Source: a virus
Direction: 5' to 3' (one strand)
Virus record (IMG/VR): IMGVR_UViG_3300046057_000051
Length of the DNA stretch: 64,000 nt
A program made the position numbers and the translations under genes. Shown piece after piece: positions 23,581 to 45,515 of the stretch; the first letter of the stretch is position 1; every line of letters begins with the position of its first letter. Under the pieces are notes generated by a model, which was not told where the DNA came from, searched no databases, and saw nothing but the letters and a program-made list of their open reading frames with translations.

Positions 23581-24480
23581 CTACTGGTTGGCCCAGTCGG
23601 GGACCTCGATGCCGACCATCCGCGCGTACCTGTTCGTCATGCTTGGATGCTGGTGTCTGGAGCGGCGGTACACTTGGCCGAACACGTCACCGTCGGGGTC
23701 CATGTCCTCGAACTCGTGAGGGTTCTCCAGTCGGTGGAGGATGGGTGTGTGGCGGCCGAACGAGTGAACGCCGGCCTCGTGGTGGTTCCGACGGAAGTGC
23801 GTAGACCACGATTCGGGCTTCCAACCGTTCCCGTAGGTGTTGGTGAACACGACATCATTGGGGTCGCGCTCCCGGATGAGGCGGTCCAGGTGGCTCATCG
23901 CCCTGCTCCCGACCGAGAGGCGAGCCGGGTGGCCGCCCTTGACGGTTCGGACGTAGAGGGTGTCCGCCCCACGGTCGATGTCCTCCCGTCTGATAGCCGT
24001 CAGTTCGGCCGCACGGAGGATGCAGTCGTAGGTGATGGCGAGGGCGGCGGCACAGCACGGGCAGTCGCACGCGGCCGGTGCGTTCTCGATGGCGCGGTCT
24101 ACGTCGTCCGTCGAGAGGTAGTTCGGCGCGAAGGGGTCCGGCTCGCCGGAGACCATGTTCTGTACCTCCTCGGGGACTTCGCGGTCGTAGTTGAGACGGT
24201 ACCAGAGCTTGACGGCCGACAGCGCAACTCGGCGGGAGCGGTACGCATAGCTGTCGGGCGGCTGTCGGCCGCGGCCGTTGACCCACGGGTAGTCGGGGAG
24301 GTCGCTGTCGGCGAGCATCTGGTCGAAGTCGTAGAGCCAGCCGGTTTCGGGGTCGCCGCCGGGCCGCCACATCTCGAAGCGACGAATCCAGAGTTGGTAC
24401 ATGTCATACGTCTTGTCGCCGATGCGCGTCCCGACGACCCGGTTCTCGAACGTGTCGAGCGCGTCGTCAACTGCTGACAT
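23581..24480 (-). CDS. Tyrosine recombinase (XerA/integrase family)
   Basis: ILRAAEL (Arg), VKGG (Lys), HSFGRH (His/Arg), RHQHPSMTNRY (His/Tyr); 299 aa. Confidence 0.9.
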   Translation of the reverse strand: MSAVDDALDTFENRVVGTRIGDKTYDMYQLWIRRFEMWRPGGDPETGWLYDFDQMLADSDLPDYPWVNGRGRQPPDSYAYRSRRVALSAVKLWYRLNYDREVPEEVQNMVSGEPDPFAPNYLSTDDVDRAIENAPAACDCPCCAAALAITYDCILRAAELTAIRREDIDRGADTLYVRTVKGGHPARLSVGSRAMSHLDRLIRERDPNDVVFTNTYGNGWKPESWSTHFRRNHHEAGVHSFGRHTPILHRLENPHEFEDMDPDGDVFGQVYRRSRHQHPSMTNRYARMVGIEVPDWANQ

Positions 24481-24515
24481 AGTTTTAGTTCAATGCTGCG
24501 GCGGTATAAGATTCA

Positions 24516-24887
24516 TCACCCGCTGTCGGCCGGGACGGTCGATGCGTCGTGGAGGACGACGATGGGGTTGCCCTCGGCGGTCCAGGACGTGACCGACTCG
24601 ACGTACTCGTAGTTCCCCAACCCTTTCACGCCGTCGCGCGAGACGGCCTGTGCGTCGTCGTCGTTCAACTCCTGGAACGGTAACACCACGATGACGGCCG
24701 CCGGGGCTTCGGTGTGAAACATGGAAATCACCGAGCCGCGGTCGGATGGACTGGCGGTGAAGTCGCAGGCGTCGGCCAGCCCTTGCTCGATGTTGGCTCG
24801 CTCCTCGTGGCTGAGTTCCCGTCCTCCGAGGACGGTGAACCCGACGATGTGGTAGGCAGCGAGCCTGAAATCGTCCTTCATCATCAC
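24516..24887 (-). CDS. Hypothetical protein
   Basis: 123 aa ORF upstream of and co-oriented with the recombinase. Confidence 0.7.
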   Translation of the reverse strand: MMMKDDFRLAAYHIVGFTVLGGRELSHEERANIEQGLADACDFTASPSDRGSVISMFHTEAPAAVIVVLPFQELNDDDAQAVSRDGVKGLGNYEYVESVTSWTAEGNPIVVLHDASTVPADSG

Positions 24888-24932
24888 AACGCAATCAATC
24901 GTCTCGGCGTCACCACCCCCTGGCGGACTGGG

Positions 24933-25640
24933 TCACTCCGATTTTGGTGTGCTGTGCGTGAAGCTCGGTGAGTCGTCGCTGTCGGTGTGGCCGCCGTCGA
25001 ACAGGATGCAGGCTTTGATGTGTTCGGCCGGTGGGGCGGTGTTCATCGAGACGCTGGCGGGGTCTGCCTCCCGGGCCTTCGCCTGAAGGTTGAGGCGTCT
25101 CTCGACCGCTCTGATGCTGTCGTCGGTCGCACATGCGACGGCGCCGATTTCTTCGGTGCCGAAGGCGTGGCGCGTCTGGGCTTCGGCGTCGTCCCCGTGG
25201 CGCTGCATCTTCGCTACGTCGCCTTCGAGGATGGCGTCGCCCACCATGTCTTTCGACGTGTCGAGGCTTTCTGCGGCCCCCTCGTCGTCGAGCGTGGTTG
25301 ATTCGCCGACCTCGATGAGTTCGTCGTACAGGGTGAGGTAGGTGTCGGCGATGTCGCTCCGGTGGGTGTCGCTGGCGTCGGCGATGGCCTGGGCGTGTGT
25401 CTGGACTGCCCGGGACGCCAGTTGCATCGCGCGCGCGCACTCTCGCCGTCTACGGTCGCCGTCGAACAGTTCTCTCGCGTGGTCGAGGACATCCTGGGTC
25501 TCCGGCGATGGCATGCTCCCGGATAGATTTTCGAGGCGCTTAGAACTTCGCCCGTTCGGTAGCCCCATCTCCCGGCGTCGTACATGGCCGCTGGAGGCGT
25601 ATTCCGGTGGTTCGCCGCCCTCGGCGACCGGCGGTAGCAT
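24933..25640 (-). CDS. Hypothetical helical protein (true start uncertain, possibly 25568 or further downstream)
   Basis: Acidic helical core of a 235 aa ORF. Confidence 0.6.
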   Translation of the reverse strand: MLPPVAEGGEPPEYASSGHVRRREMGLPNGRSSKRLENLSGSMPSPETQDVLDHARELFDGDRRRRECARAMQLASRAVQTHAQAIADASDTHRSDIADTYLTLYDELIEVGESTTLDDEGAAESLDTSKDMVGDAILEGDVAKMQRHGDDAEAQTRHAFGTEEIGAVACATDDSIRAVERRLNLQAKAREADPASVSMNTAPPAEHIKACILFDGGHTDSDDSPSFTHSTPKSE

Positions 25641-25946
25641 ATAAACCCCGTTCCGGCCGTGTACGCTACGGCGGAAGTATACGCCCTTCTACCAGGACGC
25701 CGACACACCGGGCCTGATTTAGCACCACCCTACGGGAGTGGCGTATAGCTGATGAGTCGTCCGTCCAATTGAGAGCTATCGGTTTCCTGACCGGAGTCCG
25801 GTTCAGCGCCGGTTCGGGACCAGTCGGCTCGGGGCGAGTTATCGCCGGAAAACCTCCGGAAAACCGCCGGAAAGCGGCGCGGCCGGCCACGCGCGGAGTA
25901 TATCTCATACGCTCCGGCCGGCGCCGGCGCCGACCCCCGGCCGCCG

Positions 25947-25974
25947 GAGACCTATAATCATAGTTATAGGTCAC
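25947..25974. other. dif-like tyrosine-recombinase core site (11-6-11)
   Basis: GAGACCTATAA-TCATAG-TTATAGGTCAC: arms match at 10 of 11 positions as inverted repeats, with ATAA-N6-TTAT centre, in AT-poor non-coding DNA 1.5 kb from the recombinase. Confidence 0.75.
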
Positions 25975-27090
25975 AAAGCGCCCGAAATTCGGCCGTTGAG
26001 GGGTCTCAGACACCGAAATTCTCTTAACGAAACCTTTATGACTCTCCCGCCCCAACGTGGGGCTATCCCCCCTGTTGTGGGGCGGGTTCCCGGCGCTGGG
26101 GTATCCAGGCACGGGCCACCCGGCGTGGCGCCGGCCTGCGGTTGGCCGGTGGCGTCGGGCGGCGGCGCCCGTACAAGCGCCCCCCTCCGCGAGCGCGGGA
26201 ACGGGGCGTGTGAGGCCCCACGGCTCCGACCTTACCGCCTACCCCCGGTCGCACCGGGGAGACTTAGATGTAAACTCGGAAATAGCGTCCGGCGCGAGGG
26301 CTCCCCCTCGCGCGCCACGGCATTGGCCGAACGCGCCCGGCGGGATTACGCCCGTTTACGAGACGCTCCGGCCCGTAGCACACGCGACGGTGGTCGCGGA
26401 TAGGTGTGAGGGCGACGGGGCCGCGCGGCGCGAAGTCGTGCGGCCAATGTGTCCGTCGCCGGACGGGTCCAATCGGCCCCCCTTCTCGGGGGCTGCCAAT
26501 GCCCCAAACGGCGGGCGGGCGAGTCCCCCGGCGGGGTCCGGGCAACCCAAACCCCGCGTAATTGATAACCGGGAGACTCCCCGGGGAACGGCCCCGTGAC
26601 CCGAAGCGCCCGGGTGCGAGAATACGGCGCTCCGCCGGATACGGCGGCACGGCCCCACGCCCCGATTAAGGGTGAGACCCCTGAGCGTACATGGCGGTGG
26701 GGGCCAATGGTATCCCCGCGAGTCCGACAAACTCCGCCCCGCGACCGGCGCGGGGCGCGGAGGGGCGCGGGAGTACCCCGGACCCGGCGCTGGCGCCGGT
26801 CAGTTCGCCAGCACGGCCTACCAGCCGACGAGTGGTTTTCGGCGTCCCCGGAAGGGGCTATTAGGGCACGCGACCCCGGCATAGCGCCGGGGCGCGAGGA
26901 ATTTCACGGCTATGGCACCGCACCCGACGCGAGCGCGCGAATGACGGTCGCGCCCCGGTCGGCATAGCCCGACCCGGCAGGGGCGGCGGCGACAAGCTGC
27001 CGTCCCCACCGGCCATAGAAGGCATCAGCCATTACCAGATAGACGTACCCGAGAGTAAACAGCACCGTGGATACATCGGCCCGCTGCACG

Positions 27091-27100
27091 GGGATATAAG
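27091..27100 (+). promoter_or_regulatory. Putative TATA box driving the gene array
   Basis: GGGATATAAG about 25 nt upstream of the first hairpin at 27124; archaeal TATA-to-TSS spacing. Confidence 0.5.
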
Positions 27101-27221
27101 AGCCACCATCAGCCACGCGCACCGGCCCGAGAGGGCCGCCGTGGGCAACCAGCGAACACACCCACATTCGCATCGCGGCTTTCGACCACCCACCGGCCCC
27201 GAGAGGGGTGTGGCCCCGGCT

Positions 27222-27614
27222 ATGAACGCCGACAGTCTACCCGTCCCGAGCTTCGGGACTGCGACCGACGACGGAACCGTACAAGAGCGGTCCGGCTACC
27301 ACCAGCCCGGTAACAACGGCCCCGCGACCAAGAGCTGTACGTGTGCCCGCACGACCGAGAAGGGCGCCTACCGTGACGTGCGGGTCGAGTACGACGGCGC
27401 GACCGTCCACTTCTACCACCAGTCGCCGGTGGTCGTCGTGGAGGGCCGCACGCGCCGGCTTGACAGTCACGGCTACCGGACCCGGACCACAAAAGACCGC
27501 ATTAACCGCTACCTTCCCGACGGGTACGAGGTGTACCAGGAGGAGTACGAGTGGTACCTGGAGACGCCGAGCGGCGAGCGGGAGTTCACGGACGGCATGA
27601 CCGTCACGGTCTAA
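27222..27614 (+). CDS. Array ORF 1, hypothetical
   Basis: ATG follows the hairpin motif; FYHQSPVV...GYRTRTTKDRINRY. Confidence 0.8.
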   Translation: MNADSLPVPSFGTATDDGTVQERSGYHQPGNNGPATKSCTCARTTEKGAYRDVRVEYDGATVHFYHQSPVVVVEGRTRRLDSHGYRTRTTKDRINRYLPDGYEVYQEEYEWYLETPSGEREFTDGMTVTV

Positions 27615-27664
27615 CCGTCCCCGCAACCCCCCATATCGGCCCCGAGAGGGGCGTGACTCCAGCG

Positions 27665-27838
27665 ATGAGCGCCAACGACTACGAGGACAGCCTCGCATGC
27701 AAACGGTGTAACGAACCCCGACCACCCGGCCCCGAGCTATGCCCGAGGTGCGAGGACCTACAGGCGGCGCGGACGGCCCCCGGAAACCCGGAGCCGGTCA
27801 TGCACCACAACCCGCCGCACGGCAACACGACCCGGTAG
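27665..27838 (+). CDS. Array ORF 2, Zn-finger micro-protein
   Basis: CKRC...CPRC; ATG 8 nt after GTGA. Confidence 0.75.
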   Translation: MSANDYEDSLACKRCNEPRPPGPELCPRCEDLQAARTAPGNPEPVMHHNPPHGNTTR

Positions 27839-27887
27839 CCGGTCGCCGGCTACCACTCCCGGCCCCGAGAGGGGCGTGACTCCGGCT

Positions 27888-28214
27888 ATGAACGCCAACC
27901 CCACCATCGAACTGGCGGAACCGATAGGGCAACTCGCCGGCGACGACGTGGCCGAGGTCCGCGAGAAGTTCGCGGACGTGGCGGCCGCAATGGCCGAGCG
28001 CCACCCGCCGACGAACCGCAGATTGCTCATCGCCACCGCCGATTACTGGAGCGACGCGGCCGGTCCGAACGACCCAATCGTCCAATCCATCCTGTCCTGG
28101 GTGGTGTACCTCTCGCACGACGACATGAGTCAGTTCGACGCCGGCATGACCGTAGACCAACATCAGGCGTTGCGGAAGCGCCTCGGCGAACTCGGTCTCC
28201 GCGACGACGACTGA
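27888..28214 (+). CDS. Array ORF 3, hypothetical
   Basis: ATG 8 nt after GTGA; acidic helical. Confidence 0.8.
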   Translation: MNANPTIELAEPIGQLAGDDVAEVREKFADVAAAMAERHPPTNRRLLIATADYWSDAAGPNDPIVQSILSWVVYLSHDDMSQFDAGMTVDQHQALRKRLGELGLRDDD

Positions 28215-28293
28215 CCGCGCGGGCACGGCGCCCGCGCCTGCCCCGAAAGGGGCGCGACGCCCGCTCCGGCCCCGAGAGGGGCGTGAGACCGCT

Positions 28294-28554
28294 ATGCGCG
28301 ACATACCCTGCGCCAAGTGTGGCGAACCGTACTCCCTGTACGCGCTCCGGCACGACGTGGCCGAGTGGGACGACCAGCCGGACGACGCGGCGGAGAAGTT
28401 CCAGTCGGGCGACGGCTGCCCCACCTGCGAGTGGGGCGACAAAGCCGGCGACGTGTCGGTGTCGCGGTTCAAGGGGGAAACGGAACTGGAGGCCGAACAC
28501 ATGAAGGGCGTCATGCGGGAGTCCGACGAGGACCCGCTGAAGTACCTGCCCTGA
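28294..28554 (+). CDS. Array ORF 4, Zn-finger protein
   Basis: CAKCGEP...CPTCEWG. Confidence 0.8.
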   Translation: MRDIPCAKCGEPYSLYALRHDVAEWDDQPDDAAEKFQSGDGCPTCEWGDKAGDVSVSRFKGETELEAEHMKGVMRESDEDPLKYLP

Positions 28555-28624
28555 CCGGCGCCGGCGCGACCGCCGGACACCGGCGTTAAGCCGGTTCAGC
28601 CCCGAGAGGGGAGTGACCACCGCT

Positions 28625-29167
28625 ATGAGCGACCAACTCGACACGGACCTCGGCGTCCGCTACACGGAGCGGCCCAAACACCTACCCACCGACCACTCGG
28701 AGTTCGACCCGCCGACCGCGTGGGTGAACTATTGGGACATGAACCCCGTCGCACACGGCGGGAAGTACGTCACCTGGACGGGGCGGGCGTGGCGGGTCGT
28801 AGAGGTGGGTCCGCCGTCCATGTGGGATGAGCCGGAACACATAGTCACGCGGTACAGGTTCCGCCCGGCGGACGTATGGGTTGACCCGAGCGACCCGTGG
28901 ACGGACTTCGCGGACGACATGAAGCGGATACTCCGGTCCCTCGGCGACGAGCATCACCTGCCCGTCGCCCCGCCGTTCCTCGGCAGCGTGACGTACTACG
29001 TGGCCGACCTCACGCACTACCGTAGCGTCCGACACGAAACGTTTGAGATAGACGACGGCGACGTGGACGCCTACTGGTCGCACGTCTCCGGCTACGACGT
29101 TGACCCGTCCGAGGTCCAGAACGTGTCCGAGCGCGACCTGCCGGACGACGCAATCAGCGACGACTGA
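28625..29167 (+). CDS. Array ORF 5, paralog of ORF 6
   Basis: Shares DPSDPWTDFADDMKR.LRS.GDEHHLPV with the next ORF. Confidence 0.85.
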   Translation: MSDQLDTDLGVRYTERPKHLPTDHSEFDPPTAWVNYWDMNPVAHGGKYVTWTGRAWRVVEVGPPSMWDEPEHIVTRYRFRPADVWVDPSDPWTDFADDMKRILRSLGDEHHLPVAPPFLGSVTYYVADLTHYRSVRHETFEIDDGDVDAYWSHVSGYDVDPSEVQNVSERDLPDDAISDD

Positions 29168-29212
29168 CCGCCGTAAGCGGTCCGTCGGCCCCGAGAGGGG
29201 CGTGACCGACCG

Positions 29213-29758
29213 ATGCACGACCAACTCGACACCGACCTATCGGCCCGGTACGAGGAACGGCCCCGGTACGCACCCACCGACCACCCGGCGTTCGACCCGC
29301 CGAGCGCGTGGGTGAACGTCTGGTCCATGTATTGTATCGAGAACGGTGGCACGTTCATCACGTGGGACGACGCCGGCTGGGATGTCGTGGAGGTGACGCC
29401 CCCGGACGCGCACGTGGAGCGTGAACACACCGTCGAACGGTACAGGTTGCGCCCATCGGACGTGTGGGCGGACCCGAGCGACCCGTGGACGGACTTCGCG
29501 GACGACATGAAGCGGGTACTCCGGTCCCGGGGCGACGAGCATCACCTACCCGTCTCCCCGCCGTTCCTCGGCCGTGTGACGTTGCATTACATCAGCGGCC
29601 TCACCGACCACCGGACCGTCCAGCGCAAGACGTTCGAGGTAGACGAGGGCGACATAGACGGTTACTGGTCGCACGTCTCCAGCTACGGCGTGGACTCGTC
29701 CGACGTGCAGGGCGTGGCCGCCGACGCACTACCGGACGACGCCATCACCCGCGACTGA
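29213..29758 (+). CDS. Array ORF 6, paralog of ORF 5
   Basis: Full-length similarity to ORF 5. Confidence 0.85.
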   Translation: MHDQLDTDLSARYEERPRYAPTDHPAFDPPSAWVNVWSMYCIENGGTFITWDDAGWDVVEVTPPDAHVEREHTVERYRLRPSDVWADPSDPWTDFADDMKRVLRSRGDEHHLPVSPPFLGRVTLHYISGLTDHRTVQRKTFEVDEGDIDGYWSHVSSYGVDSSDVQGVAADALPDDAITRD

Positions 29759-29802
29759 CCGCCGTAAGCGGTCGCCGCCCCGAGAGGGGCGTGACCACCG
29801 CT

Positions 29803-30096
29803 ATGGCGCGAGACACACGCGGTTACGACGACGCCGTGGACGAATCCGAAAGCACCCTGCGCGACCCCGAGGACTTCAGCCCCCTCGACGTGCGGTGTAT
29901 CGAGCGGGAGGCGCGGATGAGCGGCCGCCGGACCTACACCTACCTCGTGGTGAACCACGACGCGGGCGAGGTACTCCACGAGGGGAGCCCGGTCCGCCAG
30001 ACCGACGTGGCTCCCTCGGTCATGTCGGAGGCCGCCAAGGCGGAAGGAATCGCCGTCGGGTGGCTCCTCGCCCACCCCGACCACGAGTGGCTATAG
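29803..30096 (+). CDS. Array ORF 7, hypothetical
   Basis: ATG 8 nt after GTGA. Confidence 0.75.
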   Translation: MARDTRGYDDAVDESESTLRDPEDFSPLDVRCIEREARMSGRRTYTYLVVNHDAGEVLHEGSPVRQTDVAPSVMSEAAKAEGIAVGWLLAHPDHEWL

Positions 30097-30180
30097 AGCC
30101 ACCCACCCCGCCGGCGCCGCGCCGACGCCGCCCCGGGAGGGGACCCGCCCTTTGGCCCCGAGAGGGGCGTGACCCCGACG

Positions 30181-30399
30181 ATGAATAGCGAACGACGACG
30201 CGGCACGAGACGGCAGAAGCGGCCGCCCGGCCCGCCCGTGCCGCCGGAGTGTCCCGTCTGCGGGGAGTGCCCCCCGGAGACCGAGACCCACGCGACACGC
30301 CGGGACCCGTGCGGATGGGTAGAGGGCGAAATCAACTGCGCCGACTGCGGGCATACGTTGAAGCGGAACGTGTTGCTCCGCGACCCGGACCGCGTGTAG
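30181..30399 (+). CDS. Array ORF 8, CPxCG Zn-finger protein
   Basis: CPVCG...CADCG. Confidence 0.8.
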   Translation: MNSERRRGTRRQKRPPGPPVPPECPVCGECPPETETHATRRDPCGWVEGEINCADCGHTLKRNVLLRDPDRV

Positions 30400-30438
30400 C
30401 GGTCCCTCGGCGTTCTGCCCCGAGAGGGGCGTGACAGC

Positions 30439-30735
30439 ATGACCGAGGACGACGAACGAGCATACCGGGTCACGGTCGCTATTGACGACGGCGAACTCGC
30501 ACGCGGGAACCCCCGTAAGACGAGCGTCGAGGCGGCCAAAACCTACGTTCGGGAACGGATTGACCGGCGGGTCGATATAGTGGACGCCACTCACGACCAC
30601 CGTCCGTCGTTTACCTACGGCGACACGGTGTGGGTCGTCGGCGTGGAGTTATTCTCCCCCGACGACTCCCCGCTCGACGTGACTCCCGACGAACTCATCG
30701 AGGACGTGGAAGAAATCGCAATGCGGCGGTCGTAA
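30439..30735 (+). CDS. Array ORF 9, hypothetical
   Basis: ATG 4 nt after GTGA. Confidence 0.8.
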   Translation: MTEDDERAYRVTVAIDDGELARGNPRKTSVEAAKTYVRERIDRRVDIVDATHDHRPSFTYGDTVWVVGVELFSPDDSPLDVTPDELIEDVEEIAMRRS

Positions 30736-30780
30736 CAACCACGTCCGCCGCGTTCGGCCCCGAGAGGGGCGTGACCACCG

Positions 30781-31017
30781 ATGGACGCAGCCGACCTCGC
30801 CGACGCAATCGGCAACAGCGTGAACTCCGGCATCGACGTGGACGAGTTCAAAGACGGCATCGACAGCGAACACAACACGCTCCAGCGCGAAGCGTACCGG
30901 CAGGTGTTCAAACCGGGCATGAAGGCGCTGGCCGGCACCGAGTACGTGGACTTTCGCAACGAGCGCGAAGTGGAACTCGCCCGCGAGGTATGCGACAAGA
31001 TGGGCTGGACCTACTAA
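30781..31017 (+). CDS. Array ORF 10, hypothetical
   Basis: ATG 6 nt after GTGA. Confidence 0.8.
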   Translation: MDAADLADAIGNSVNSGIDVDEFKDGIDSEHNTLQREAYRQVFKPGMKALAGTEYVDFRNEREVELAREVCDKMGWTY

Positions 31018-31061
31018 CCCACCCATCCGGCGTTCGGCCCCGAGAGGGGCGAGACTCCGGT

Positions 31062-31538
31062 ATGACGGACCCCTACCCCGAAGCCCGACGACGGGCACGA
31101 CTCGACCGAACCGACCACCAGCGAGCGCGACGGGACCGACGCCGCCAACGGCGCGGTCCCTCGACCAGCCGCATCGAGGCGGCGCTGGAGACGGTCGCAG
31201 ACCACGACATCCCGGGCACGCCGGGGGCCGGCGACCTCCGCGTCCTGAAACACGTCCACGACAGCGAGTGGACGGTCGAGACGCGCGAGGTACGGGACTT
31301 CTCAATCACTCGCGGCGACCCACAGCACGGGGCGCTCCGTAGCGACGACCACGTGGGCCGCTACGAGGTGGCGTTCCCGCTGTTCGAGGCCGACCTCCCG
31401 GGCGTCCCCGAGGCGTGTCCCGAGTGCGGCGGCGAGCGCGGCGTCTACACGTACCGCGCCCACCACCACATAGCGGGCAGTGAGCGCATTGACTGCCTTC
31501 GCTGCGAGCAGCAGCTACACAGCGAGGAGTGGGGCTAA
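31062..31538 (+). CDS. Array ORF 11, protein with a C-terminal Zn finger
   Basis: CPECGG...CLRCE; motif variant ends in GAGA. Confidence 0.8.
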   Translation: MTDPYPEARRRARLDRTDHQRARRDRRRQRRGPSTSRIEAALETVADHDIPGTPGAGDLRVLKHVHDSEWTVETREVRDFSITRGDPQHGALRSDDHVGRYEVAFPLFEADLPGVPEACPECGGERGVYTYRAHHHIAGSERIDCLRCEQQLHSEEWG

Positions 31539-31583
31539 CGCCCCGACCCGCCTCGTTCGGCCCCGAGAGGGGCGTGACCACCG

Positions 31584-31793: not shown

Positions 31794-31836
31794 CCGACAG
31801 CCCCACACCGTCGCCCCGAGAGGGGCGTGACCACCG

Positions 31837-35733: not shown

Positions 35734-35771
35734 CCCCGGGCCGCCGTCGGCCCCGAGAGGGGCGTGATTCG

Positions 35772-37470: not shown

Positions 37471-37516
37471 CCGGCGGACACCCGGCCGGCGTCGCCCCGA
37501 GAGGGGCGTGACCACG

Positions 37517-37978: not shown

Positions 37979-38020
37979 GCAGACTCAATACTATTCGGCC
38001 CCGAGAGGGGCGTGAGACCG

Positions 38021-38446
38021 ATGAGTTCCGCGCCAGACATGGCGAACGCGAACGAGCTACACAGCACAGTCCTCGCCCGCCTCGACAGCACCGGCGGTGT
38101 CCTGACGGCGCTGCACAACGCGCTGTACGCCGCCGACGAGGCCGGGTTCCACGTCCAGCATGACGAGGACCGCGCCGTGGACCTCGACAACTACCTCGGG
38201 CGGGCGATGGAGGCGGCGGACGACACTGACCCCGACCCGAAGTTGGTGTGTGACCGCGTCGAGTCCGCCCGCCGGCAAGCGACCTATTTCCGAACGGGCC
38301 TCGACGACGACGTGGCGGCGTTCGAGCTACCGGAGTACGTCGATTCCGGCGTGTACGACACGCTCGGGGAGTACGCGCGGTACGTCGAGCAGGACATCCG
38401 TGTCCTCATGCAGTACGCCGAGGCGTGGGCGCACGCGGCCGAATAA
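38021..38446 (+). CDS. Array ORF 25, helical hypothetical protein
   Basis: ATG 5 nt after GTGA. Confidence 0.8.
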   Translation: MSSAPDMANANELHSTVLARLDSTGGVLTALHNALYAADEAGFHVQHDEDRAVDLDNYLGRAMEAADDTDPDPKLVCDRVESARRQATYFRTGLDDDVAAFELPEYVDSGVYDTLGEYARYVEQDIRVLMQYAEAWAHAAE

Positions 38447-38492
38447 CCCCCACGCTCATCCCGGTTCGGCCCCGAGAGGGGCGTGAGACACC

Positions 38493-38867
38493 GTGACGGA
38501 CGCAATCACGCAATCGGAGTACGACGCGGCGGTCGAACCGTTCGTGGAGATGGTTGTCGATGAGGCCGAGGAGATGGTCGAGTCGGGCCATTTCGACTCC
38601 CGGCGGCAGGGCGTCATGGAGATGTGTTCCGAGGAACTCAACTATCACGACTGGTTCGCTCGGAACTACTACGACGGCGCGCTGTACGGCTCCATCGTCG
38701 AACACGCGGACACCGACCCGGCGAGCTATTCTGACTGGCCGGCGCTCATCGAGTCCGACACCCCGGAGGGGACGTTGAAGCGTCTCGCGTTCGTGGTGAT
38801 GGAAGCCGACGTTATGTCGGTGGCTCTCGACCGCGTCGAGGCCGACGCTGACGCCGAGCGCGCGTAG
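38493..38867 (+). CDS. Array ORF 26, hypothetical (GTG start)
   Basis: GTG 6 nt after GTGA. Confidence 0.8.
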   Translation: MTDAITQSEYDAAVEPFVEMVVDEAEEMVESGHFDSRRQGVMEMCSEELNYHDWFARNYYDGALYGSIVEHADTDPASYSDWPALIESDTPEGTLKRLAFVVMEADVMSVALDRVEADADAERA

Positions 38868-38951
38868 CCGGCCCACGGGCCGGCCACACCACGGAGCCGC
38901 ACACACGCGCGCACAGCGGCTCCTGGCAGCCCCGAGAGGGGCGTGGTTCCG

Positions 38952-39359
38952 ATGCAACAGGACAAGCCACCGCTGGAGGACCGTATCGAGGACAGCGACC
39001 TGTCTGCCGAGTACGCGCGGCCGCCGACCGGCGAGTCCGCCAACGGAGCGGACATCTCGGTCGCGCTCCCCGCCCAGTACGGCGATAAACTCACCGTCCA
39101 CTACCCCGACGAGTGCGACGAACCCCACCGGGGCAACCCCGAGGAGTGGCTGTACGGCGGGCTCCGCGGCGAGTCCGTCGTCCTCGTGGCGTGGGACGCC
39201 TACCAGGACAGTCTCGACCGGGCCGACGACGACGAGTTCGTCACGCTGTTCGGGAAAACATGCGAGGGCGTGTTCCGGTTCAACAACCGTATCCGCCGCG
39301 TCGCGGAGACGGTGTGCGTCGAGCGCATCGACAGCCCGGAGTATCTCTCCATCCGATAA
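38952..39359 (+). CDS. Array ORF 27, hypothetical
   Basis: ATG 5 nt after the GTGG variant. Confidence 0.8.
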   Translation: MQQDKPPLEDRIEDSDLSAEYARPPTGESANGADISVALPAQYGDKLTVHYPDECDEPHRGNPEEWLYGGLRGESVVLVAWDAYQDSLDRADDDEFVTLFGKTCEGVFRFNNRIRRVAETVCVERIDSPEYLSIR

Positions 39360-39400
39360 CCAACCCCCGGTTTTCGCCCCGAGAGGGGCGTGACTCCACG

Positions 39401-40135
39401 ATGACAGCCAACACCGCCAACATCGAGGTCGCGGGCTCCGCCGCCGCGAACATCGCCAGGGACCTCCTCAATGGCCTCGGCATCCCGCCGAGCGACATCG
39501 AGGCGGCCGACATCACCGTCGTCGTCAACGGCGACGGCGACACGGAAGTCGCGCTCGTCGCGGACGGCCCGAACGCCGGCGCCATTACCGCCGAGATGTT
39601 CGGTGGCGTCGAGTGGGACGACTACGAGGTCGCGTCCATCGACGCCGACGTGACCGAGCGCGACGAGCCGGCGGAGCCATCGACCGCCGACGACGACACC
39701 AGTTCGAGGCCCGGCAAAAGCGGGTTCCAGCCGCAGGTCACGCCGCTCGCCGGGAAAGTTGACCCGCAGTACGTCGAGTTCCCCGGCGAGCCGCCGGGGC
39801 GTATCCGGGAACACACCCAACTCCACGTCATCGCCGACATCCTCATAAAGTGGTACGCCGATTACGACGCCGATTGGGTCAGCGGCGGCGCGCTCGCCGA
39901 GTATGAGTCGAACCCGCTGTCGGAAACACAGACGCAGAACGGCTCGTCGCGGCTGTTCCGAAACAAGGGACTCGTCGTCCGCCGCCAGCAGCCCGAGGGC
40001 GACGGCCGGAAGTACGAGTACCACCCGACCAAGCAGTTGTCCGAGGAGGCGTCCCGCCTCGGCGAGTATTCGATGCCCGATGTCGAGGAGACGCGCGACA
40101 AACGAACGCCCGACGACGTGGACGACGAACCATAG
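39401..40135 (+). CDS. Array ORF 28, protein with a C-terminal winged-helix-like domain
   Basis: SSRLFRNKGLVVRRQQPEGDGRKYEYHPT resembles a MarR-type wing. Confidence 0.7.
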   Translation: MTANTANIEVAGSAAANIARDLLNGLGIPPSDIEAADITVVVNGDGDTEVALVADGPNAGAITAEMFGGVEWDDYEVASIDADVTERDEPAEPSTADDDTSSRPGKSGFQPQVTPLAGKVDPQYVEFPGEPPGRIREHTQLHVIADILIKWYADYDADWVSGGALAEYESNPLSETQTQNGSSRLFRNKGLVVRRQQPEGDGRKYEYHPTKQLSEEASRLGEYSMPDVEETRDKRTPDDVDDEP

Positions 40136-40180
40136 GGTGGCCCCCACGGGCCACCACGGCCCCGAGAGGGGCGTGAAACG

Positions 40181-40615
40181 ATGGACGAGCCAGACCACGA
40201 ATCCACCATCGAAGCCAGACTCGACGAACTACGCGACAACAGCGGCCAGAGCTACATACTCGCCGGGAGCGCCGCCGAGATACTCCGACCGTTCCGCACC
40301 GACGTGACGCGGGAGTTCGTCGTCGAACACACGCTGTCCGACGCCGATGACGTGGATGTCGAGCCCTCGGACTACAACGGCTTGCTCGCACTCCACGGCG
40401 CCCTGGAAGCCAAACAACGGTCGTCCCGCGAAGCGCGCGGCATCACGAGCGTCCACGCGCACAAGATGCTCGTCACGTACTCGGACGTGTCCGCCATCAT
40501 CGTCGAGGCGCTCGGCGGCGAGCCGAGCGACTACACCGCCGGCGGCCACGGGTTCACGGCCGACGGCCGACACGAGGAGAACGTCGAGGCGATTGTCGAA
40601 CGCCTCGACGAGTAG
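40181..40615 (+). CDS. Array ORF 29, hypothetical
   Basis: ATG 4 nt after GTGA. Confidence 0.8.
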   Translation: MDEPDHESTIEARLDELRDNSGQSYILAGSAAEILRPFRTDVTREFVVEHTLSDADDVDVEPSDYNGLLALHGALEAKQRSSREARGITSVHAHKMLVTYSDVSAIIVEALGGEPSDYTAGGHGFTADGRHEENVEAIVERLDE

Positions 40616-40735
40616 CCCGCAGCGGCGGGCTTCGGCCCCGAAAGGGGCAATCAGGGGTACAGCCAACCAACTACGGGTCACGCCCCTCTTTTCGGTTCGA
40701 GGAGCGCGCCAGCCCCGAGAGGGGCATGACTCCCG

Positions 40736-40870
40736 ATGTACGACGACGACGTTGAAATCATCGAGTGCCGCGAGTGCGGCGCCCAGTTCGACGTAGCGAA
40801 ACAGCGGTATTACGACAATCTCTGTCCACCCTGCAAGGACGAGAACGACCCGGGGGCGCCTGCCGCCTGA
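40736..40870 (+). CDS. Array ORF 30, 44-aa Zn-finger micro-protein
   Basis: MYDDDVEIIECRECGAQFDVAKQRYYDNLCPPCKDENDPGAPAA; below the ORF-track cutoff; follows the motif. Confidence 0.75.
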   Translation: MYDDDVEIIECRECGAQFDVAKQRYYDNLCPPCKDENDPGAPAA

Positions 40871-40914
40871 TAGCCGCCCCCGGATTTTTAGTCCCGAGAG
40901 GGGCAGTGACAGCT

Positions 40915-41226
40915 ATGGACGAGTACGACGACCCAATCCAGTTGGAACTCAGGACCGACCGGGAAGTCGCCGTGTTCATGCACGCGATGGGGCTGGGGTC
41001 GGCGATGCTTATTGACAACAACTTCATCGCCGGCGCCCAGACCGCGTCGAACCTCCAGATACGGCTCGCCACCGCGGCCCCGGAGCGAGCCAAGCGCGCG
41101 CTGGACGACCACGGCGACGGCGGCGTGATGAGCGGTCTCGGCGAAGTGTCGAACGAGGCCGCCGTCGGGCACCTCATCGCGGAGGAGGAGGTAGACCCCG
41201 ACGAGGCGGTCGAAGGGATGCTGTGA
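40915..41226 (+). CDS. Array ORF 31, hypothetical
   Basis: Follows the variant GTCCC-GAGA-GGGGC-AGTGA. Confidence 0.75.
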   Translation: MDEYDDPIQLELRTDREVAVFMHAMGLGSAMLIDNNFIAGAQTASNLQIRLATAAPERAKRALDDHGDGGVMSGLGEVSNEAAVGHLIAEEEVDPDEAVEGML

Positions 41227-41271
41227 CACCCCCCTTTGGCGGTCTCTGCCCCGAGAGGGGCGTGATTGCCG

Positions 41272-41610
41272 ATGGAACGAACGATATACGAGTGCGACTG
41301 GTGTGGCGAACGGTTCGGCGCGAAGAACGACGTTGCTCCCGTCCCGATTCGACGCCGGGTACGTGAGTGGCTCCCGTACCGGGAGTACACGCTCCACTTC
41401 TGCTTCGGGTGTGAGGGCTCGGCGGCAGTGGAACTCAACAACACCGGGTTCAAGCGGTTCCTCGTGAACGAGGGCGACGAGGTCATCGGCTGCGAGTGGA
41501 GCATGCGGGAAATCTACCCGCTCTCGGATGTCCCCGAGGACCGGCTTGCGGACCCGGAGGCACTGGACGCGGCGGTAAACGCGGTCGAGGACGCCCTCAA
41601 TCCCACGTAG
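41272..41610 (+). CDS. Array ORF 32, Zn-finger protein
   Basis: CDWCG...HFCFGC. Confidence 0.8.
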   Translation: MERTIYECDWCGERFGAKNDVAPVPIRRRVREWLPYREYTLHFCFGCEGSAAVELNNTGFKRFLVNEGDEVIGCEWSMREIYPLSDVPEDRLADPEALDAAVNAVEDALNPT

Positions 41611-41656
41611 GACGCCTCGACACCCGGGTTTCGGCCCCGAGAGGGGCGTGATGTTG

Positions 41657-42106
41657 ATGACGGAAGTAACTATTCACAGTGACGAGCGCGTACTGCTCGG
41701 CCCCGACGAGGGCCCGATACTGGCAAGCGAACTCCGCGAGGAACACGCTTGGTACGACGAGCCCGCGTTCGCCGCCACGTACTCGACGGGCCGCGAGTGG
41801 GGGGCCGAGGAGACGGATGATGGCTTCGTCACGGTCCGCACGACGCCGGACCCGACGCTCCACGTCTACCTCGACGACGACGCTGCCTACGTTGCGCTGC
41901 TGGTCGAGAACCGCGACGACATCGTGATGCGGCTGTTCGAGGTCCCGGGCACGTCCGTCATGGATTTCGTGGCGCGGATGACGACGGCAATCGAGGACGG
42001 GTACGACGGTATCGGGAACGTGGAGGTGGCGGTGGCGGACGGCCAGATGGCGCAACTCGGCGACCAGCTACACGGGCAGGTCGAGGACATCCTCGCGGAC
42101 GCATAG
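41657..42106 (+). CDS. Array ORF 33, hypothetical
   Basis: ATG 5 nt after GTGA. Confidence 0.8.
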   Translation: MTEVTIHSDERVLLGPDEGPILASELREEHAWYDEPAFAATYSTGREWGAEETDDGFVTVRTTPDPTLHVYLDDDAAYVALLVENRDDIVMRLFEVPGTSVMDFVARMTTAIEDGYDGIGNVEVAVADGQMAQLGDQLHGQVEDILADA

Positions 42107-42153
42107 GGCGTCCTCGTCCCGTGGGCCTGGCCCCGAGAGGGGCACGATTCCCG

Positions 42154-42426
42154 ATGAACACCGAGATTCCAGTGGATACGCACCACCGCGTCGGCCCGCT
42201 CGTCGATAGGGGCGGGCATGGTCCCGTGACCTGCATCGTCCCCCACCTGTGGGTGTGTCTCGACTGCGGGTACACGGCCGCTTACGAGCGACGGTTCAGT
42301 CATGTGGACTGTGACCGCGCGGAGAACCCCATTAATCAGACGTGGCGTGAGCGTCTCGACAAGTACGTGTTCCCGGATGCGTTCGATGAGCGTGAGGGCG
42401 AGCGCCGCGAGCGCGACTCGCCGTAA
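42154..42426 (+). CDS. Array ORF 34, Cys/His-motif protein
   Basis: HH...CLDCG...C. Confidence 0.75.
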   Translation: MNTEIPVDTHHRVGPLVDRGGHGPVTCIVPHLWVCLDCGYTAAYERRFSHVDCDRAENPINQTWRERLDKYVFPDAFDEREGERRERDSP

Positions 42427-42476
42427 CCCCCTATCGCCCCATTTTAGGGCGCGGGGCGCGTGGGTGGAGGTGAACG

Positions 42477-42797
42477 ATGGTACCGGACGAGACCGACATC
42501 GAGCAGACCGACGAGGAACAGAACCCCACGTTCGGTGTCCCCGGCGTCGAGGTCGTCGATAACGGCCGTATCCGTCTCCCGCCGCGGCAACGCGACCGCT
42601 ACGACATCGAGGAGGACGACGTGGTTGACATCCGCGTCCGGGCGCCCAGCGTGATATTCTGGGCGCTCGACATCGTGGTGGACGGCCGCGGCCGTATCCG
42701 TATCCCGTCGCGGAAACGCGACCTCTACGAAGTCGATGACGGCGACGTAGTGGACATCGACGTGATGATTACCGGCATGACCCACGACGGCGACTAA
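42477..42797 (+). CDS. Tandem AbrB/MazE/SpoVT-family DNA-binding protein (no hairpin motif)
   Basis: Two repeats VDNGRIRLPPRQRDRYDIEEDDVV / VDGRGRIRIPSRKRDLYEVDDGDVV; canonical GGAGGTGA SD. Confidence 0.85.
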   Translation: MVPDETDIEQTDEEQNPTFGVPGVEVVDNGRIRLPPRQRDRYDIEEDDVVDIRVRAPSVIFWALDIVVDGRGRIRIPSRKRDLYEVDDGDVVDIDVMITGMTHDGD

Positions 42798-42869
42798 CCC
42801 CGGCGTGGCCGCCGGCCCCCCAGCCCCGGGAGGGGCACCACCCGCCCCGAGAGGGGACTGTACCCACGA

Positions 42870-44186
42870 ATGACGACCAACACCCCACCATCGACGATGG
42901 ACGGCCTGCTCGCGCTCTCCAAAGGGGAGGCGCTGGAGATAGAGGCGTTGTGCTGGCGTGGCGACCTCTCCATCAAGCGAGTCACCAAACACATGGTCCG
43001 CGTCCTCGCCGACGAGATGACGTGGGACGGCCGCGAGAACAGCCAGTCGCTCCGCGGCGTCTGGTACAGCGGCGTCAAACAAGTGTACCAACACCTGTTC
43101 CCCGAGAAGTGGGCAGACGACCACTACACGGAGCCGCCGTCGCGCCGCTTCTCACAGTCGCTCTCCGAATACACCTCCGAACTGGTGAAGGAGGGCGAAC
43201 TCACGTATCGGGACATCAACGTCGTGGACGACTCCCGCGACCGGGAGATACTCGGCACCGACGCCGTCGAACACGACAAAATCCTGTTCGTGGAGAAGCG
43301 CGCGAAATACCGACAGTTAGCCCCTATCAGCGACGTGCTGGAAGTGTCGCTCGTGTCGGGCGGCGGCTGGCAGGCGACGGCGCTCATCGAGGACCTCGCC
43401 AACGTCCTCGACCCGACCAACACGTACACCATCTTCATCCTCACGGACTTCGACCCCACGGGCTACCGTATCGCCGAGGACTTCCAGTCGCGCGCCGAAA
43501 CCCTCGGGGTGAACGTCGAGGGCGTCGAGCGCATCGGCATCGAGCCCGAACAGGTCACGACGGAAGTCGCCGAGGCCGAACGGTTCGAGGTGCCCGTCGA
43601 GAGCGATTACGACGAACGCTGGCTCGACACCCACGGCATCGAGGACGACCACGACGACCCCCGGTACGGGTTGGAACTGGAAGCCATCGGCGGCCGCGAC
43701 TCTGCCGCCCAGGACTTCCGGCGCGTCGTCGTCGAAGCCCTCGACCCCCATTTGCGGAAGCGGCGTCGGCGGTCGCGGGACCTCAACATCGAGACGGCGA
43801 ACGTCGTCGGCCGCGGCGTGGACGACCTCGTCGATGACATGACCGAGCAGTTGACCGCGGCGCTCAAAGAGTACGCCATCGCCGAGTTGCGCGACCACGA
43901 CGCCGTCGAGCGGTTGACCTACCGTCGCGGGGACGACACCGTGACGGCGGCCGTGGACCTTGCGGAGCGCGAGGGCGGTGACGACGACCGTATCCCCCAC
44001 CCGCTGGCGTGGGGCACCTACTCGTCGGCGGCCATCGACCCGGACACGACGGAGTCGGGCGACATCGTGTCGCCGCGGCCGCCGCGCGACGAACAGGTCC
44101 GCCGCCTCCAGCGGCAGCTTGCGGCAGAGATGGACGACCCCGACGGCGACATCGACGTAACGGACCTGTTGGACCTCGACGTGTAA
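42870..44186 (+). CDS. Topoisomerase VI subunit A/Spo11-like TOPRIM protein
   Basis: LRGVWY (candidate catalytic Tyr region), LFVEKR, SGGG, LTDFDPTG (DxD), VERIGI, LELEAI. Confidence 0.75.
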   Translation: MTTNTPPSTMDGLLALSKGEALEIEALCWRGDLSIKRVTKHMVRVLADEMTWDGRENSQSLRGVWYSGVKQVYQHLFPEKWADDHYTEPPSRRFSQSLSEYTSELVKEGELTYRDINVVDDSRDREILGTDAVEHDKILFVEKRAKYRQLAPISDVLEVSLVSGGGWQATALIEDLANVLDPTNTYTIFILTDFDPTGYRIAEDFQSRAETLGVNVEGVERIGIEPEQVTTEVAEAERFEVPVESDYDERWLDTHGIEDDHDDPRYGLELEAIGGRDSAAQDFRRVVVEALDPHLRKRRRRSRDLNIETANVVGRGVDDLVDDMTEQLTAALKEYAIAELRDHDAVERLTYRRGDDTVTAAVDLAEREGGDDDRIPHPLAWGTYSSAAIDPDTTESGDIVSPRPPRDEQVRRLQRQLAAEMDDPDGDIDVTDLLDLDV

Positions 44187-44294
44187 CGCGCCCACAGTCG
44201 TTTTCCCGCCCCGAGAGGGGCCGACGCTTACTCATACGTGGAGTGACGCGCCCGGTACTGCTTAGTTCTACGGCCCCGAGAGGGGCGTGAGTCG

Positions 44295-44660
44295 ATGGCT
44301 CAGGCACTATTATCGGAAAGCGACGACGCGGTACCGCTTCATCTGGACATCGCCCGTAGCTTCCGGCGGCGGACGACTATCGACAGCGTGCTGACGTTGT
44401 CGTATGTGTCGAACGGCGTGGCGGCGGGGACGCCGACGGCGGGCGTCTATGCCCGGACGATGGGGGATGGGCTCGACGACGCCGCGGTGTTGCTCGTCGA
44501 GGGCCCCGACGTGGAGGAGTCGGCGTACTGGATGCATACCAGGGACATCCAGCCCGTTGCGGAGTTGCTCCTCAGCGACGAGTACGTCGTGACGTACACG
44601 GCGAGTCCGCACGTCGAGCCCGGCGCCTACACGGTCCACGTCACGGTGGACGAGGAGTAG
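44295..44660 (+). CDS. Array ORF 37, hypothetical
   Basis: ATG 4 nt after GTGA. Confidence 0.75.
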   Translation: MAQALLSESDDAVPLHLDIARSFRRRTTIDSVLTLSYVSNGVAAGTPTAGVYARTMGDGLDDAAVLLVEGPDVEESAYWMHTRDIQPVAELLLSDEYVVTYTASPHVEPGAYTVHVTVDEE

Positions 44661-44670
44661 CTGGTGGGCG

Positions 44671-44976
44671 ATGACGAACTTGTTCATCCCGCCGGAGTTA
44701 CTCCCCGACGAGTGGGCGTACAGGGACGCTGACCCGGACGCGGGCGTGACGATGTATCGTGACGAGTCCGGGCAGCGCGAGTTGGTGTGCGTCCGGGAGG
44801 GGTTGAACGAGTACGATGTGGCGCTGGAGGCTACGGGCGGCCACCCGGCGTTCTCGGCGCGCACGGAGTTCTTCGCGGCCGAGGGCGTCCCGTTCCATAC
44901 GGCGGTTGCGGTGGCGGTCGGGATGCTGCATGGGGCGGTGTGGTTCGAGCGGATTCATCTCGACGCCTCCGGGTGA
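44671..44976 (+). CDS. Array ORF 38, hypothetical (no hairpin motif)
   Basis: 10 nt downstream of the previous stop. Confidence 0.7.
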   Translation: MTNLFIPPELLPDEWAYRDADPDAGVTMYRDESGQRELVCVREGLNEYDVALEATGGHPAFSARTEFFAAEGVPFHTAVAVAVGMLHGAVWFERIHLDASG

Positions 44977-45030
44977 CTGCCGGGACGGCCCGGCGGTCGC
45001 CGGGGCTGCCCCGAGAGGGGCGTGGTTCCG

Positions 45031-45447
45031 ATGGAAACCGAAGGACGGTACGACTGTGCGACCTGTGGCGAACCGCTCAACATCGTCGGCATCCTCCGCC
45101 ACGATTGCGACCGCGTCCTGTCGGCGGCGAACATCACACCCGGCGAGCAGGACACGCTGCTGTACGTCGAGACGCGGGTCGTGGAACACGAGGGTGTCCT
45201 GAACCTCTGGCAGATGAACTACGACGACCAGCAGAACCTCAAGTTGTCCGGTGCCGCCGGCATCCTCGACGTGAGCGAGGACCCGAATCCCTACGAGGAC
45301 GAAATGTGCGTCGAGGCGTTCACCGAGCGGGCGTGGGACCTCGCCGGTGAGTCCCGGTGGCTCCGTGCCGCGCGGAACATGGATGGTGACGTGGTGGACG
45401 CGGATGTGCTGGCTGACCGGCTGGGGGTGGCGTCCGTCCCGCCGTAG
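45031..45447 (+). CDS. Array ORF 39, protein with N-terminal Cys/His motif
   Basis: CATCGEP...HDC; last motif-associated ORF. Confidence 0.8.
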   Translation: METEGRYDCATCGEPLNIVGILRHDCDRVLSAANITPGEQDTLLYVETRVVEHEGVLNLWQMNYDDQQNLKLSGAAGILDVSEDPNPYEDEMCVEAFTERAWDLAGESRWLRAARNMDGDVVDADVLADRLGVASVPP

Positions 45448-45515
45448 CTGGATTCCCGTGGTTTGGGGTCGAGAGGCCCGGCGGTCGCGGTAATCCTCGC
45501 GCGTAGTGTGAGCGG

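Follow-up and report, generated by a model that had tools for sequence, protein, structure and literature searches.

Introduction

PeSL cassettes of T4-type phages recombine through a repeat composed of a promoter and a stem-loop, a process that shuffles ORFans and forms mini-circles with no dedicated integrase (Arbiol et al. 2010, PMC2839356; PMC4122927). In one part of the halovirus HGTV-1, as far as the account relayed in PMC3950731 goes, a TATA-like box and an inverted repeat precede most open reading frames (ORFs), and regulation and shuffling were proposed as their roles (Sencilo et al. 2013). The SAS/ESAS sequences of cluster K mycobacteriophages, 13 base pairs (bp) long and located 3-7 bp before start codons, are suspected of a role in translation initiation (Pope et al. 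2011, PMC3203893). Integrons were recognized for the present comparison by an IntI-type integrase with the IntI-specific additional domain around patch III, and by attC sites, which are imperfect palindromes of 55-141 nucleotides (nt) with R''/L'' and L'/R' boxes; published archaeal integrons show both IntI and attC in their canonical form (Ghaly et al. 2022, PMC9668308). The subject of this analysis is an array of small, hairpin-tagged genes in the IMG/VR virus record IMGVR_UViG_3300046057_000051, studied as one stretch of 64,000 nt (hereafter the window), for which an initial annotation had proposed an integron-like architecture.

The array combines a PeSL-like shuffling repeat with a SAS-like start tag, without promoters in its units, in an archaeal element. 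It is read here, with somewhat better than even confidence, as a promoterless operon in which an RNA hairpin is associated with the starts and its repeats would also drive homology-based shuffling of units, beside a recombinase that would form a separate Xer/Cre-like module with a 9-6-9 inverted repeat as its probable target. The likeness to PeSL cassettes lies in a short, conserved, intergenic stem-loop repeat beside the ORFans of a hyperplastic region, and in crossovers at that repeat between relatives. In the phages, close relatives differ by insertions, deletions and replacements, which were attributed to homologous recombination. PeSL units, however, each carry a strong promoter and a terminator stem-loop, whereas here the spacers are without promoter-like sequence, the hairpin is of constant sequence and sits 9-13 nt from the start, and the host is archaeal. 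HGTV-1 is likewise a haloarchaeal mobile element with a run of small ORFs that are each preceded by the same inverted-repeat motif. Direct inspection showed that motif to be a composite of about 100 nt, with two or three TATA boxes around the inverted repeat and gaps of 110-180 nt, whereas the motif in the window is 14-18 nt long, GC-only outside its loop, and set in spacers of about 45 nt that lack a TATA box. With SAS the array shares a short asymmetric word upstream of starts, in one orientation, at non-structural genes and at the position of a ribosome-binding site. SAS, in contrast, marks only about 13-19 genes per phage, is built on a clear AGGAG core, and has inverted repeats that lack the covariation of RNA hairpins. 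In the window the tag stands before 37 of 39 genes in a row, the hairpin covaries, and shuffling of the units is documented.

Results

Geometry of the hairpin array

The array and the features that define its limits and its exceptions are the following.

27196..45447, + strand: array of 39 co-directional small genes (27222-45447), 37 of them tagged by the hairpin, nearly all ORFans
42477..42797, + strand: untagged array gene with a canonical haloarchaeal Shine-Dalgarno sequence, GGAGGTGA-ACG-ATG, three nt before the ATG
44671..44976, + strand: untagged array gene with a coupled start, beginning 10 nt past the previous stop codon
45466..45479, + strand: closing hairpin GGGTC-GAGA-GGCCC, with the same loop, another stem and no gene behind it, 19 nt after the last stop codon

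When CCCCGAGAGGGG was searched for with up to one mismatch allowed, the window gave 44 matches against 1.28 expected by chance, and 42 of these lay on the + strand between 27197 and 45020. In the tagged genes GCCCC-GAGA-GGGGC(GTGA) precedes the start codon at a distance of 11.0 +/- 1.3 nt (range 9-13). Between the previous stop codon and the motif there are mostly 17-62 nt, and up to 418 nt where an untagged gene intervenes; the hairpin is thus anchored to the downstream start codon rather than to the end of the preceding gene. Its core, G-CCCC-GAGA-GGGG-C followed by GTGA, forms a 5-bp G-C stem with a GNRA-type tetraloop. Array genes start with ATG, rarely GTG, and their ORFs have a strong coding signature in the GC content of third codon positions (GC3), in a window of about 65-70% GC overall. 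The GTG within the motif was considered as a start codon and rejected, because in most units its frame is not that of the conserved ATG. The terminal hairpin at 45466 that the initial annotation had described was found as stated.

In many spacers the stop codon is immediately followed by a further, variable hairpin, in which a GTAA loop and a short T-run are frequent. One of these, the 18-nt hairpin GACCGC-CGTAA-GCGGTC that follows the paralogous units 28625-29167 and 29213-29758, also follows an unrelated gene ending at 37197. Extra copies of the start-associated hairpin occur at 28241, 30131, 40636, 42824 and 44209, in unit tails with no start codon after them, some with GAAA or GGGA loops; the copy at 30131 goes with the upstream gene in a relative (L021). 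These extra copies could have been left behind by lost units or recruited as 3' hairpins.

Conservation and covariation in related elements

Contigs carrying a 314-amino-acid (aa) protein encoded in the array came from hypersaline metagenomes and one NCBI assembly, and the window's own DNA was present in runs of a halite metagenome study. The window's own clade (L021, L023 and L025; marker protein 87-53% identical) shows the same plan of a divergent recombinase, a leader, a Kyano_Gp96-like first gene and dozens of small genes about 45 nt apart. Copies of the hairpin word numbered 35 in L021, 27 in L023, 30 in L025 and 13 in L024, all on the + strand, and the hairpin was kept in relatives at only 43-58% protein identity. 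In a sister clade (L028 and L029; about 45% identity, 60-63% GC) it takes the form GCCC-GAGA-GGGC, 7-8 nt before the start, with the tail ACATACC-ATG and without GTGA.

Across 219 hairpin copies the loop and the three inner C-G pairs were nearly invariant. The fourth stem pair was C-G in 151 copies and G-C in 40, with T-A, A-T and G-T among the others, and was paired in 203 of the 219; the fifth occurred as G-C, C-G, A-T and G-T. Because the outer stem pairs covary, the hairpin is, by this comparison, a folded single strand under selection. Among start-associated copies, G-U-type departures on the sense strand outnumbered A-C-type departures 37 to 18 (p=0.014), which points to folding of the mRNA-sense strand and not of the bottom strand as in attC.

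The repeat was sought more widely. Megablast of the array against phage and plasmid collections gave no match. An exact 18-mer scan gave one chance match among viral contigs, 19 single chance matches among species genomes, all bacterial, and only three short contigs with 2-5 copies each among metagenome contigs. By these sparse matches the family is rare, and the word alone is a poor probe for diverged members. The hairpin motif itself was absent from the literature searched. A more distant relative (L027, 8814-10001) encodes a homologue of the 314-aa protein, 49% identical, and has no GAGA hairpin there; another repeated pre-start word is present instead, ACCACCGCTCACGG / CATACGGCCG.

A start signal or a processing signal

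The 3' edge of the hairpin lies 7-12 nt before the AUG. The GAGG of the hairpin and the GTGA of this clade match parts of what we take to be the haloarchaeal consensus, GGAGGTGA, with GAGAGGGGCGUGA presumed as the reference for a comparison against the host's 16S 3' terminus; the host's own 16S may differ. The two untagged genes have other initiation signals in the same place, GGAGGTGA at 42477 and the 10-nt coupled start at 44671. These alternative start signals, together with the Shine-Dalgarno position of the hairpin, favour a translation-initiation element in mRNA. A specific reader of the hairpin would account for the invariant loop, and one array gene attracts attention in this respect.

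28294..28554, + strand: 86-aa four-cysteine zinc-ribbon protein (CxxC...CPxC) with an acidic tail, the most conserved array protein across both clades

This protein was 94% identical in L021 and 64-65% identical in L029 and L031, which makes it more conserved than the recombinase. Its gene is fourth in the window array, first in L021, and first or second in relatives. It matched no Pfam family and had no informative neighbour in the Atlas. The gene lies near the promoter candidate, and the protein is a candidate reader of the hairpin.

The strictly conserved loop, which implies a protein reader, would also suit an RNA element devoted mainly to processing or stability, acting as a 5' cap-like structure once the RNA is cut between the variable 3' hairpin and the constant 5' one in the manner of T7 intercistronic sites, or to boxB-like antitermination through a small protein of the element. 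The lambda boxB is a GNRA loop on a short G-C stem, which the hairpin resembles; many spacers have the two-hairpin layout described above, and the zinc-ribbon protein is both promoter-proximal and conserved in both clades. Such a role would not, however, need the tight spacing to the start codon or the replacement by Shine-Dalgarno signals in unmarked genes. No nuclease or N-like protein was identified in the family and structure searches, and we know of no N-type antitermination in archaea. Processing, stability or attenuation is a live alternative for the hairpin, although on this evidence an unlikely one.

The leader and the question of promoters

Between the array and the minus-strand genes to its left lies a stretch of about 1.58 kb (25641-27221) that is non-coding, as the initial annotation had it, although two minus-strand ORFan genes (24516-25640) also stand between the recombinase and the array. 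Its features are given below, with BRE denoting the transcription factor B recognition element.

25973..27195, + strand: GC-rich non-coding leader, 72% GC, 85% identical to that of L021, with patches conserved in L023 and L025
26028..26040, + strand: BRE/TATA-like promoter candidate CGAAAC-TTTAT facing the array, conserved in the three alignable leaders
27094..27099, + strand: TATA-like word ATATAA, 25 nt before the variant hairpin
27124..27137, + strand: variant hairpin GGCCC-GAGA-GGGCC, with a compensatory stem, before the first unit; identical in L021

The TATA-like box that had been noted before the first hairpin is present as ATATAA; it is not conserved, and reads ACACAA in L021 within a leader that is otherwise 85% identical, for which reason it appears to be a weak promoter candidate. 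The sequence at 26028-26040, which has the canonical haloarchaeal BRE/TATA form, is the more likely promoter of the array. Its TTTAT is invariant in the window, L021 and L023, and the preceding letters are CGAAA in the window and L021 and CGATG in L023. The proposal of a single promoter serving promoterless units is thus consistent with the nearly TATA-free spacers and with the conserved BRE/TATA candidate, while the likelier position of that promoter moves from 27094 to 26028, where promoter function is presumed from conservation and resemblance.

Downstream of this candidate, at 26041-26330, long blocks of the leader are invariant even in L023 and are also found at the equivalent positions in L021; they could represent a structured 5' untranslated region, a non-coding RNA or a replication origin. 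Rfam gave no match in the leader or the array. A minus-strand ORF at 26346-26882 was rejected as a gene, having a flat codon-position GC (0.73/0.75/0.69) and an Arg/Pro-rich junk translation, and a 178-aa ORF called in the leader of L021 was likewise judged not coding. A near-copy of the motif on the minus strand at 26480 was considered as an antisense partner and dismissed, as it is absent from L021 and within chance expectation.

A design with one promoter per gene, as in PeSL or HGTV-1, would make the constant word a DNA element for a private transcription factor before leaderless starts, and the tail hairpin with its T-run a terminator. Leaderless transcription would give the fixed distance to the ATG, HGTV-1 and T4-type phages do have promoter-plus-stem-loop repeats in ORFan regions, and many tails carry a hairpin followed by TTT(C). 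In the sister clade such tail hairpins (at or below -5 kcal/mol, with TTT(C)) are enriched, in 10 of 12 tails of L028 and 12 of 12 of L029 against 36-40% of shuffled tails. In the window clade, on the other hand, the enrichment is weak, with tail hairpins at or below -5 kcal/mol in 22 of 36 tails of the window against 54% of shuffled tails. The spacers, with a median length of 46 nt, contain a TATA/BRE-like sequence in only 1 of 36 cases, and positions 25-31 nt before the ATG are GC-rich and unconserved, where the HGTV-1 repeats have two or three TATA boxes. The compensatory stem changes and G-U wobbles also point to a folded strand rather than to a protein site in duplex DNA. Promoters in front of each gene are therefore considered improbable.

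Shuffling of units at the hairpin

Homology blocks between the window and L021 were 81-95% identical. Thirteen of the 15 blocks begin 1-8 nt before a hairpin, positions that make up 4.8% of the array, and the ends of 10 of the 15 fall 11-25 nt past the first base of a hairpin (7.0% of array positions). Blocks likewise start at the hairpin in 7 of 10 cases for L023 and in 4 of 7 for L025. The order of the blocks differs between the window and L021, and the units at 29803, 32284 and 35772 have other positions in L021. The window has a tandem duplication of one unit, and several units occur in only one of the two elements. The tandem paralogous units at 28625-29167 and 29213-29758 share 73-83% nt identity, and both match a single copy in L021. 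A map of unit families over seven arrays showed that they share a gene pool whose order is scrambled and which includes many singletons.

In the same halite study, contigs of other samples contained alternative joints within the hairpin, for example from 37993 to 38465 with 25 shared letters in two runs, a joint that removes a 141-aa unit, and the contigs of the source run itself break at hairpins. Joints that go back in the array were considered as unit circles and set aside, as they match the linear gene order of a relative; this comparison covered assembled contigs only. At exchanged junctions the upstream gene keeps a tail of about 20 nt and the downstream gene keeps about 11 nt ahead of its ATG, which locates the crossovers within the 18-28 nt that are shared. 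Content and order of the units thus vary with junctions at the repeats, as in integrons, and the comparisons support a cassette array at the level of behaviour. Of the two explanations in the initial annotation, the second, a convergent architecture that homologous recombination between repeats maintains, is the better supported.

The recombinase, its candidate site and the integron question

The minus-strand genes and the site next to the leader are as follows.

23581..24480, - strand: tyrosine recombinase of 299 aa, divergent Xer/Cre-like (PF00589, E=2.6e-10)
24516..24887 and 24933..25640, - strand: two ORFan genes (123 aa and 235 aa) that separate the recombinase from the leader, with the coding GC3 signature
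25949..25972, no strand: perfect 9-6-9 inverted repeat GACCTATAA-TCATAG-TTATAGGTC, the sole AA/TT-centred palindrome of its kind in the 64-kb window

The identification of a minus-strand tyrosine recombinase pointing away from the array was borne out by the PF00589 match and by the catalytic set R156, K181, H239, R243 and Y285, which was kept in an alignment with three orthologues. The two neighbouring ORFans matched no Pfam or NCBIfam family. The recombinase scored 24.7 bits against a cut-off of 265 with the integron-integrase model TIGR02249, 38.1 against 220 with the XerA model, 24.6 against 335 with XerC and 22.7 against 330 with XerD, and so reached none of these cut-offs; XerA was its best relative of solved structure (E=1.6e-4). 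The gap between R156 and R243 is 87 residues, and the three orthologues are likewise without an insertion. By these measures the enzyme is a divergent Xer/Cre-like recombinase and not an IntI. Orthologues were found in L021, L023, L025 and L031, at 39-57% identity in L021, L023 and L031. In L031 the orthologous gene is about 10 kb from the array, beyond genes for a primase, a UvrD helicase and Dam. No recombinase was found within 14 kb upstream of the array in L033, and none near the array in L024.

Core sites of tyrosine recombinases consist of two arms of about 9-13 bp around a spacer of 6-8 bp. Sites equivalent to the 9-6-9 repeat were located in L021 (at 1430), L023 (4915), L028 (96), L029 (6457) and L031 (6160), in each case about 1.2 kb upstream of the first array gene. 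They are perfect in the window, L021, L023 and L028 and have one mismatch in L029 and L031; across the six loci the arms are element-specific with AA/TT inner ends, and the 6-bp spacer is near-constant. The site stays beside the leader even in L031, where the recombinase gene is distant. Arm identity and recombinase identity correlated weakly, with only six pairs for comparison, and the presumed pairing of recombinase and site therefore rests on the uniqueness of the site, the architecture and the conserved position. The 9-6-9 repeat is probably the core site of the recombinase, for dimer resolution or for attachment and integration, and is a more plausible substrate than the hairpins. Like Xer/dif and Cre/loxP, the window has a full catalytic set and, within the same replicon, one inverted-repeat site around a 6-bp spacer, and the arm sequences differ between elements whose recombinases have diverged. 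It differs in an enzyme far under the XerA, XerC and XerD cut-offs, in arms of 9 bp, and in a site fixed about 1.2 kb before the array even when the gene is 10 kb away.

The resemblance to integrons is real in layout. In both, a recombinase stands beside a leader or promoter, followed by a long, co-oriented array of mostly promoterless single genes with structured repeats and varying content and order, and a common upstream promoter is predicted here as well. The differences that the initial annotation had itself listed, namely the lack of RYYYAAC/GTTRRRY ends, the 5-bp stem and the lack of an IntI insertion, all hold. GTTRRRY occurred in 1 of 38 spacers and RYYYAAC in none, and 30 of the 38 spacers are shorter than 55 nt, below the smallest attC. 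The attC site lies at the 3' end of a cassette and folds from the bottom strand, whereas the 14-18 nt hairpin lies at the 5' end of a gene, at a fixed distance from its start codon, without R/L boxes and with sense-strand wobbles. The 9-6-9 site, 1.27 kb from the first unit and upstream of both the promoter candidate and the leader, is not placed as an attI. The claimed match to integrons thus stands for co-oriented, promoterless, shuffled units and fails for an IntI-like mechanism, given the recombinase scores, the attC words and the placement of the hairpin, and the recombinase is neither an IntI nor always adjacent. An integron mechanism is not supported by these comparisons.

A non-canonical platform, in which the tyrosine recombinase or another factor of the element recombines the hairpins and excises and re-inserts single-gene circles, would fit the co-oriented promoterless units behind one leader, the scrambled order with junctions in the repeat, and a hairpin that is a selected structure with a strand bias. 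Against it stand the score of the enzyme with the integron-integrase model, the 87-residue gap between box I and box II with no IntI insertion, the near-absence of attC words from mostly short spacers, and a hairpin whose position is set by the next start codon and whose wobble bias is that of the sense strand. With its 5-bp stem and 4-nt loop the hairpin is smaller than a synapse requires and does not provide the two arms and spacer that such enzymes bind, while a suitable 9-6-9 site exists elsewhere. The recombinase gene can lie far from the array (L031) or beyond the 14 kb inspected (L033). The recombinases of the window and L021, moreover, are only 42% identical, whereas the hairpin is unchanged and the array proteins are 87-94% identical. 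Such a platform is very unlikely. An independent archaeal cassette platform, in which the recombinase or a factor such as the zinc-ribbon protein would recognize the GNRA hairpin and excise and re-insert units while the hairpin doubles as a translation start signal, is just as doubtful; if it were true, any captured gene would be expressed at once.

Other genes of the array and its surroundings

Two features outside the argument above were prominent.

33200..34144, + strand: 314-aa protein found in all relatives; phrog_11344, also present in actinophages and a Methanobacterium virus
45639..45788, + strand: tRNA gene immediately past the array, its anticodon arm enlarged by an insert of about 81 nt (RF00005, 34.2 bits against a gathering threshold of 29, E=2.4e-5)

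Almost all array proteins were without a Pfam match, and the searches gave no families except a weak Kyano_Gp96 match and a few PHROGs. The 314-aa protein has hundreds of metagenomic homologues. Its AlphaFold model, a confident one (pLDDT 86.7), had no match in the PDB and matched only uncharacterized AlphaFold clusters, with no link to recombination, and the predicted fold may be undescribed. For a 438-aa array protein a pattern-based locus search found nothing, and an exhaustive HMMER search gave 158 representatives, none informative on function. The tRNA, which ARAGORN missed, could be one that the element encodes for itself or what is left of an attachment site.

To the right of the array, 47165-48640 (+ strand) encodes a 491-aa protein of the viral family phrog_13083 (E=8e-53). 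The haloarchaeal tailed viruses HSTV-2, HRTV-7 and HHTV-2 have homologues, and the arrays of L028 and L029 each include one with a hairpin tag. A block of unknown genes at 56113-63534 is 35-58% identical to positions 1-11000 of L033, upstream of the array there. That region of L033 has a run of paralogues of 160-210 aa together with a giant protein that includes CARDB, and it may represent a particle module. Nowhere was a terminase, portal or capsid gene recognized.

Discussion

The observations fit a hyperplastic accessory operon of a family of virus- or plasmid-like haloarchaeal elements living in halite and other hypersaline settings, as represented in the metagenomes. The BRE/TATA candidate in the leader would most likely drive one long polycistronic transcript. 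In that mRNA the hairpin, small and very stable, would act as a start-associated element where the Shine-Dalgarno helix would otherwise sit, 7-13 nt before starts across the clades, and would mark or protect each cistron for translation initiation, possibly through a reader that is encoded by the element or belongs to the ribosome. The roughly 40 direct repeats of 18-28 nt would at the same time serve as crossover points for homology-driven recombination or template switching. Exchange at these repeats would duplicate, delete, transpose and swap single units, producing cassette-like behaviour without the mechanism of an integron. The recombinase would act apart from this, as a module that uses the 9-6-9 site for resolution or integration of the element.

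Several points weigh against this interpretation. We infer the single transcript, the folding of the hairpin in RNA and the effect on translation from sequence, and the mechanism of exchange only from the positions of the junctions. Rearrangements of whole genes are in any case bound to break within the short spacers, which inflates the apparent precision of the junctions, and 18 nt is short for homologous recombination of the RadA type. The near-invariant loop and three inner C-G pairs point to a sequence-specific reader, with which a DNA-binding protein would be equally compatible. The sister clade lacks the GTGA tail, which is half of a Shine-Dalgarno sequence, so that the link to a ribosome-binding site is not universal. 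Finally, an orthologue of the recombinase is present in every element with enough sequence (the window, L021, L023, L025 and L031), and a role at the hairpins is possible.

The 9-6-9 sites and their matched recombinases form a set of possibly orthogonal recombinase-site pairs for haloarchaeal genetics, and the 14-nt hairpin with its spacer would be a compact part for reporter operons in Haloferax. In archaea, the initiation of translation at internal cistrons and the logic by which viral operons are expressed are poorly understood. If the proposed reading is true, the array would be the densest known private start-associated RNA signal, present at 37 of 39 consecutive cistrons and covarying across relatives of about 45% protein identity. 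It would extend the PeSL idea from T4-type phages to promoterless units, and it would mean that an archaeal mobile element can acquire cassette-like shuffling, a behaviour commonly attributed to integrons, through nothing more than a short regulatory repeat.

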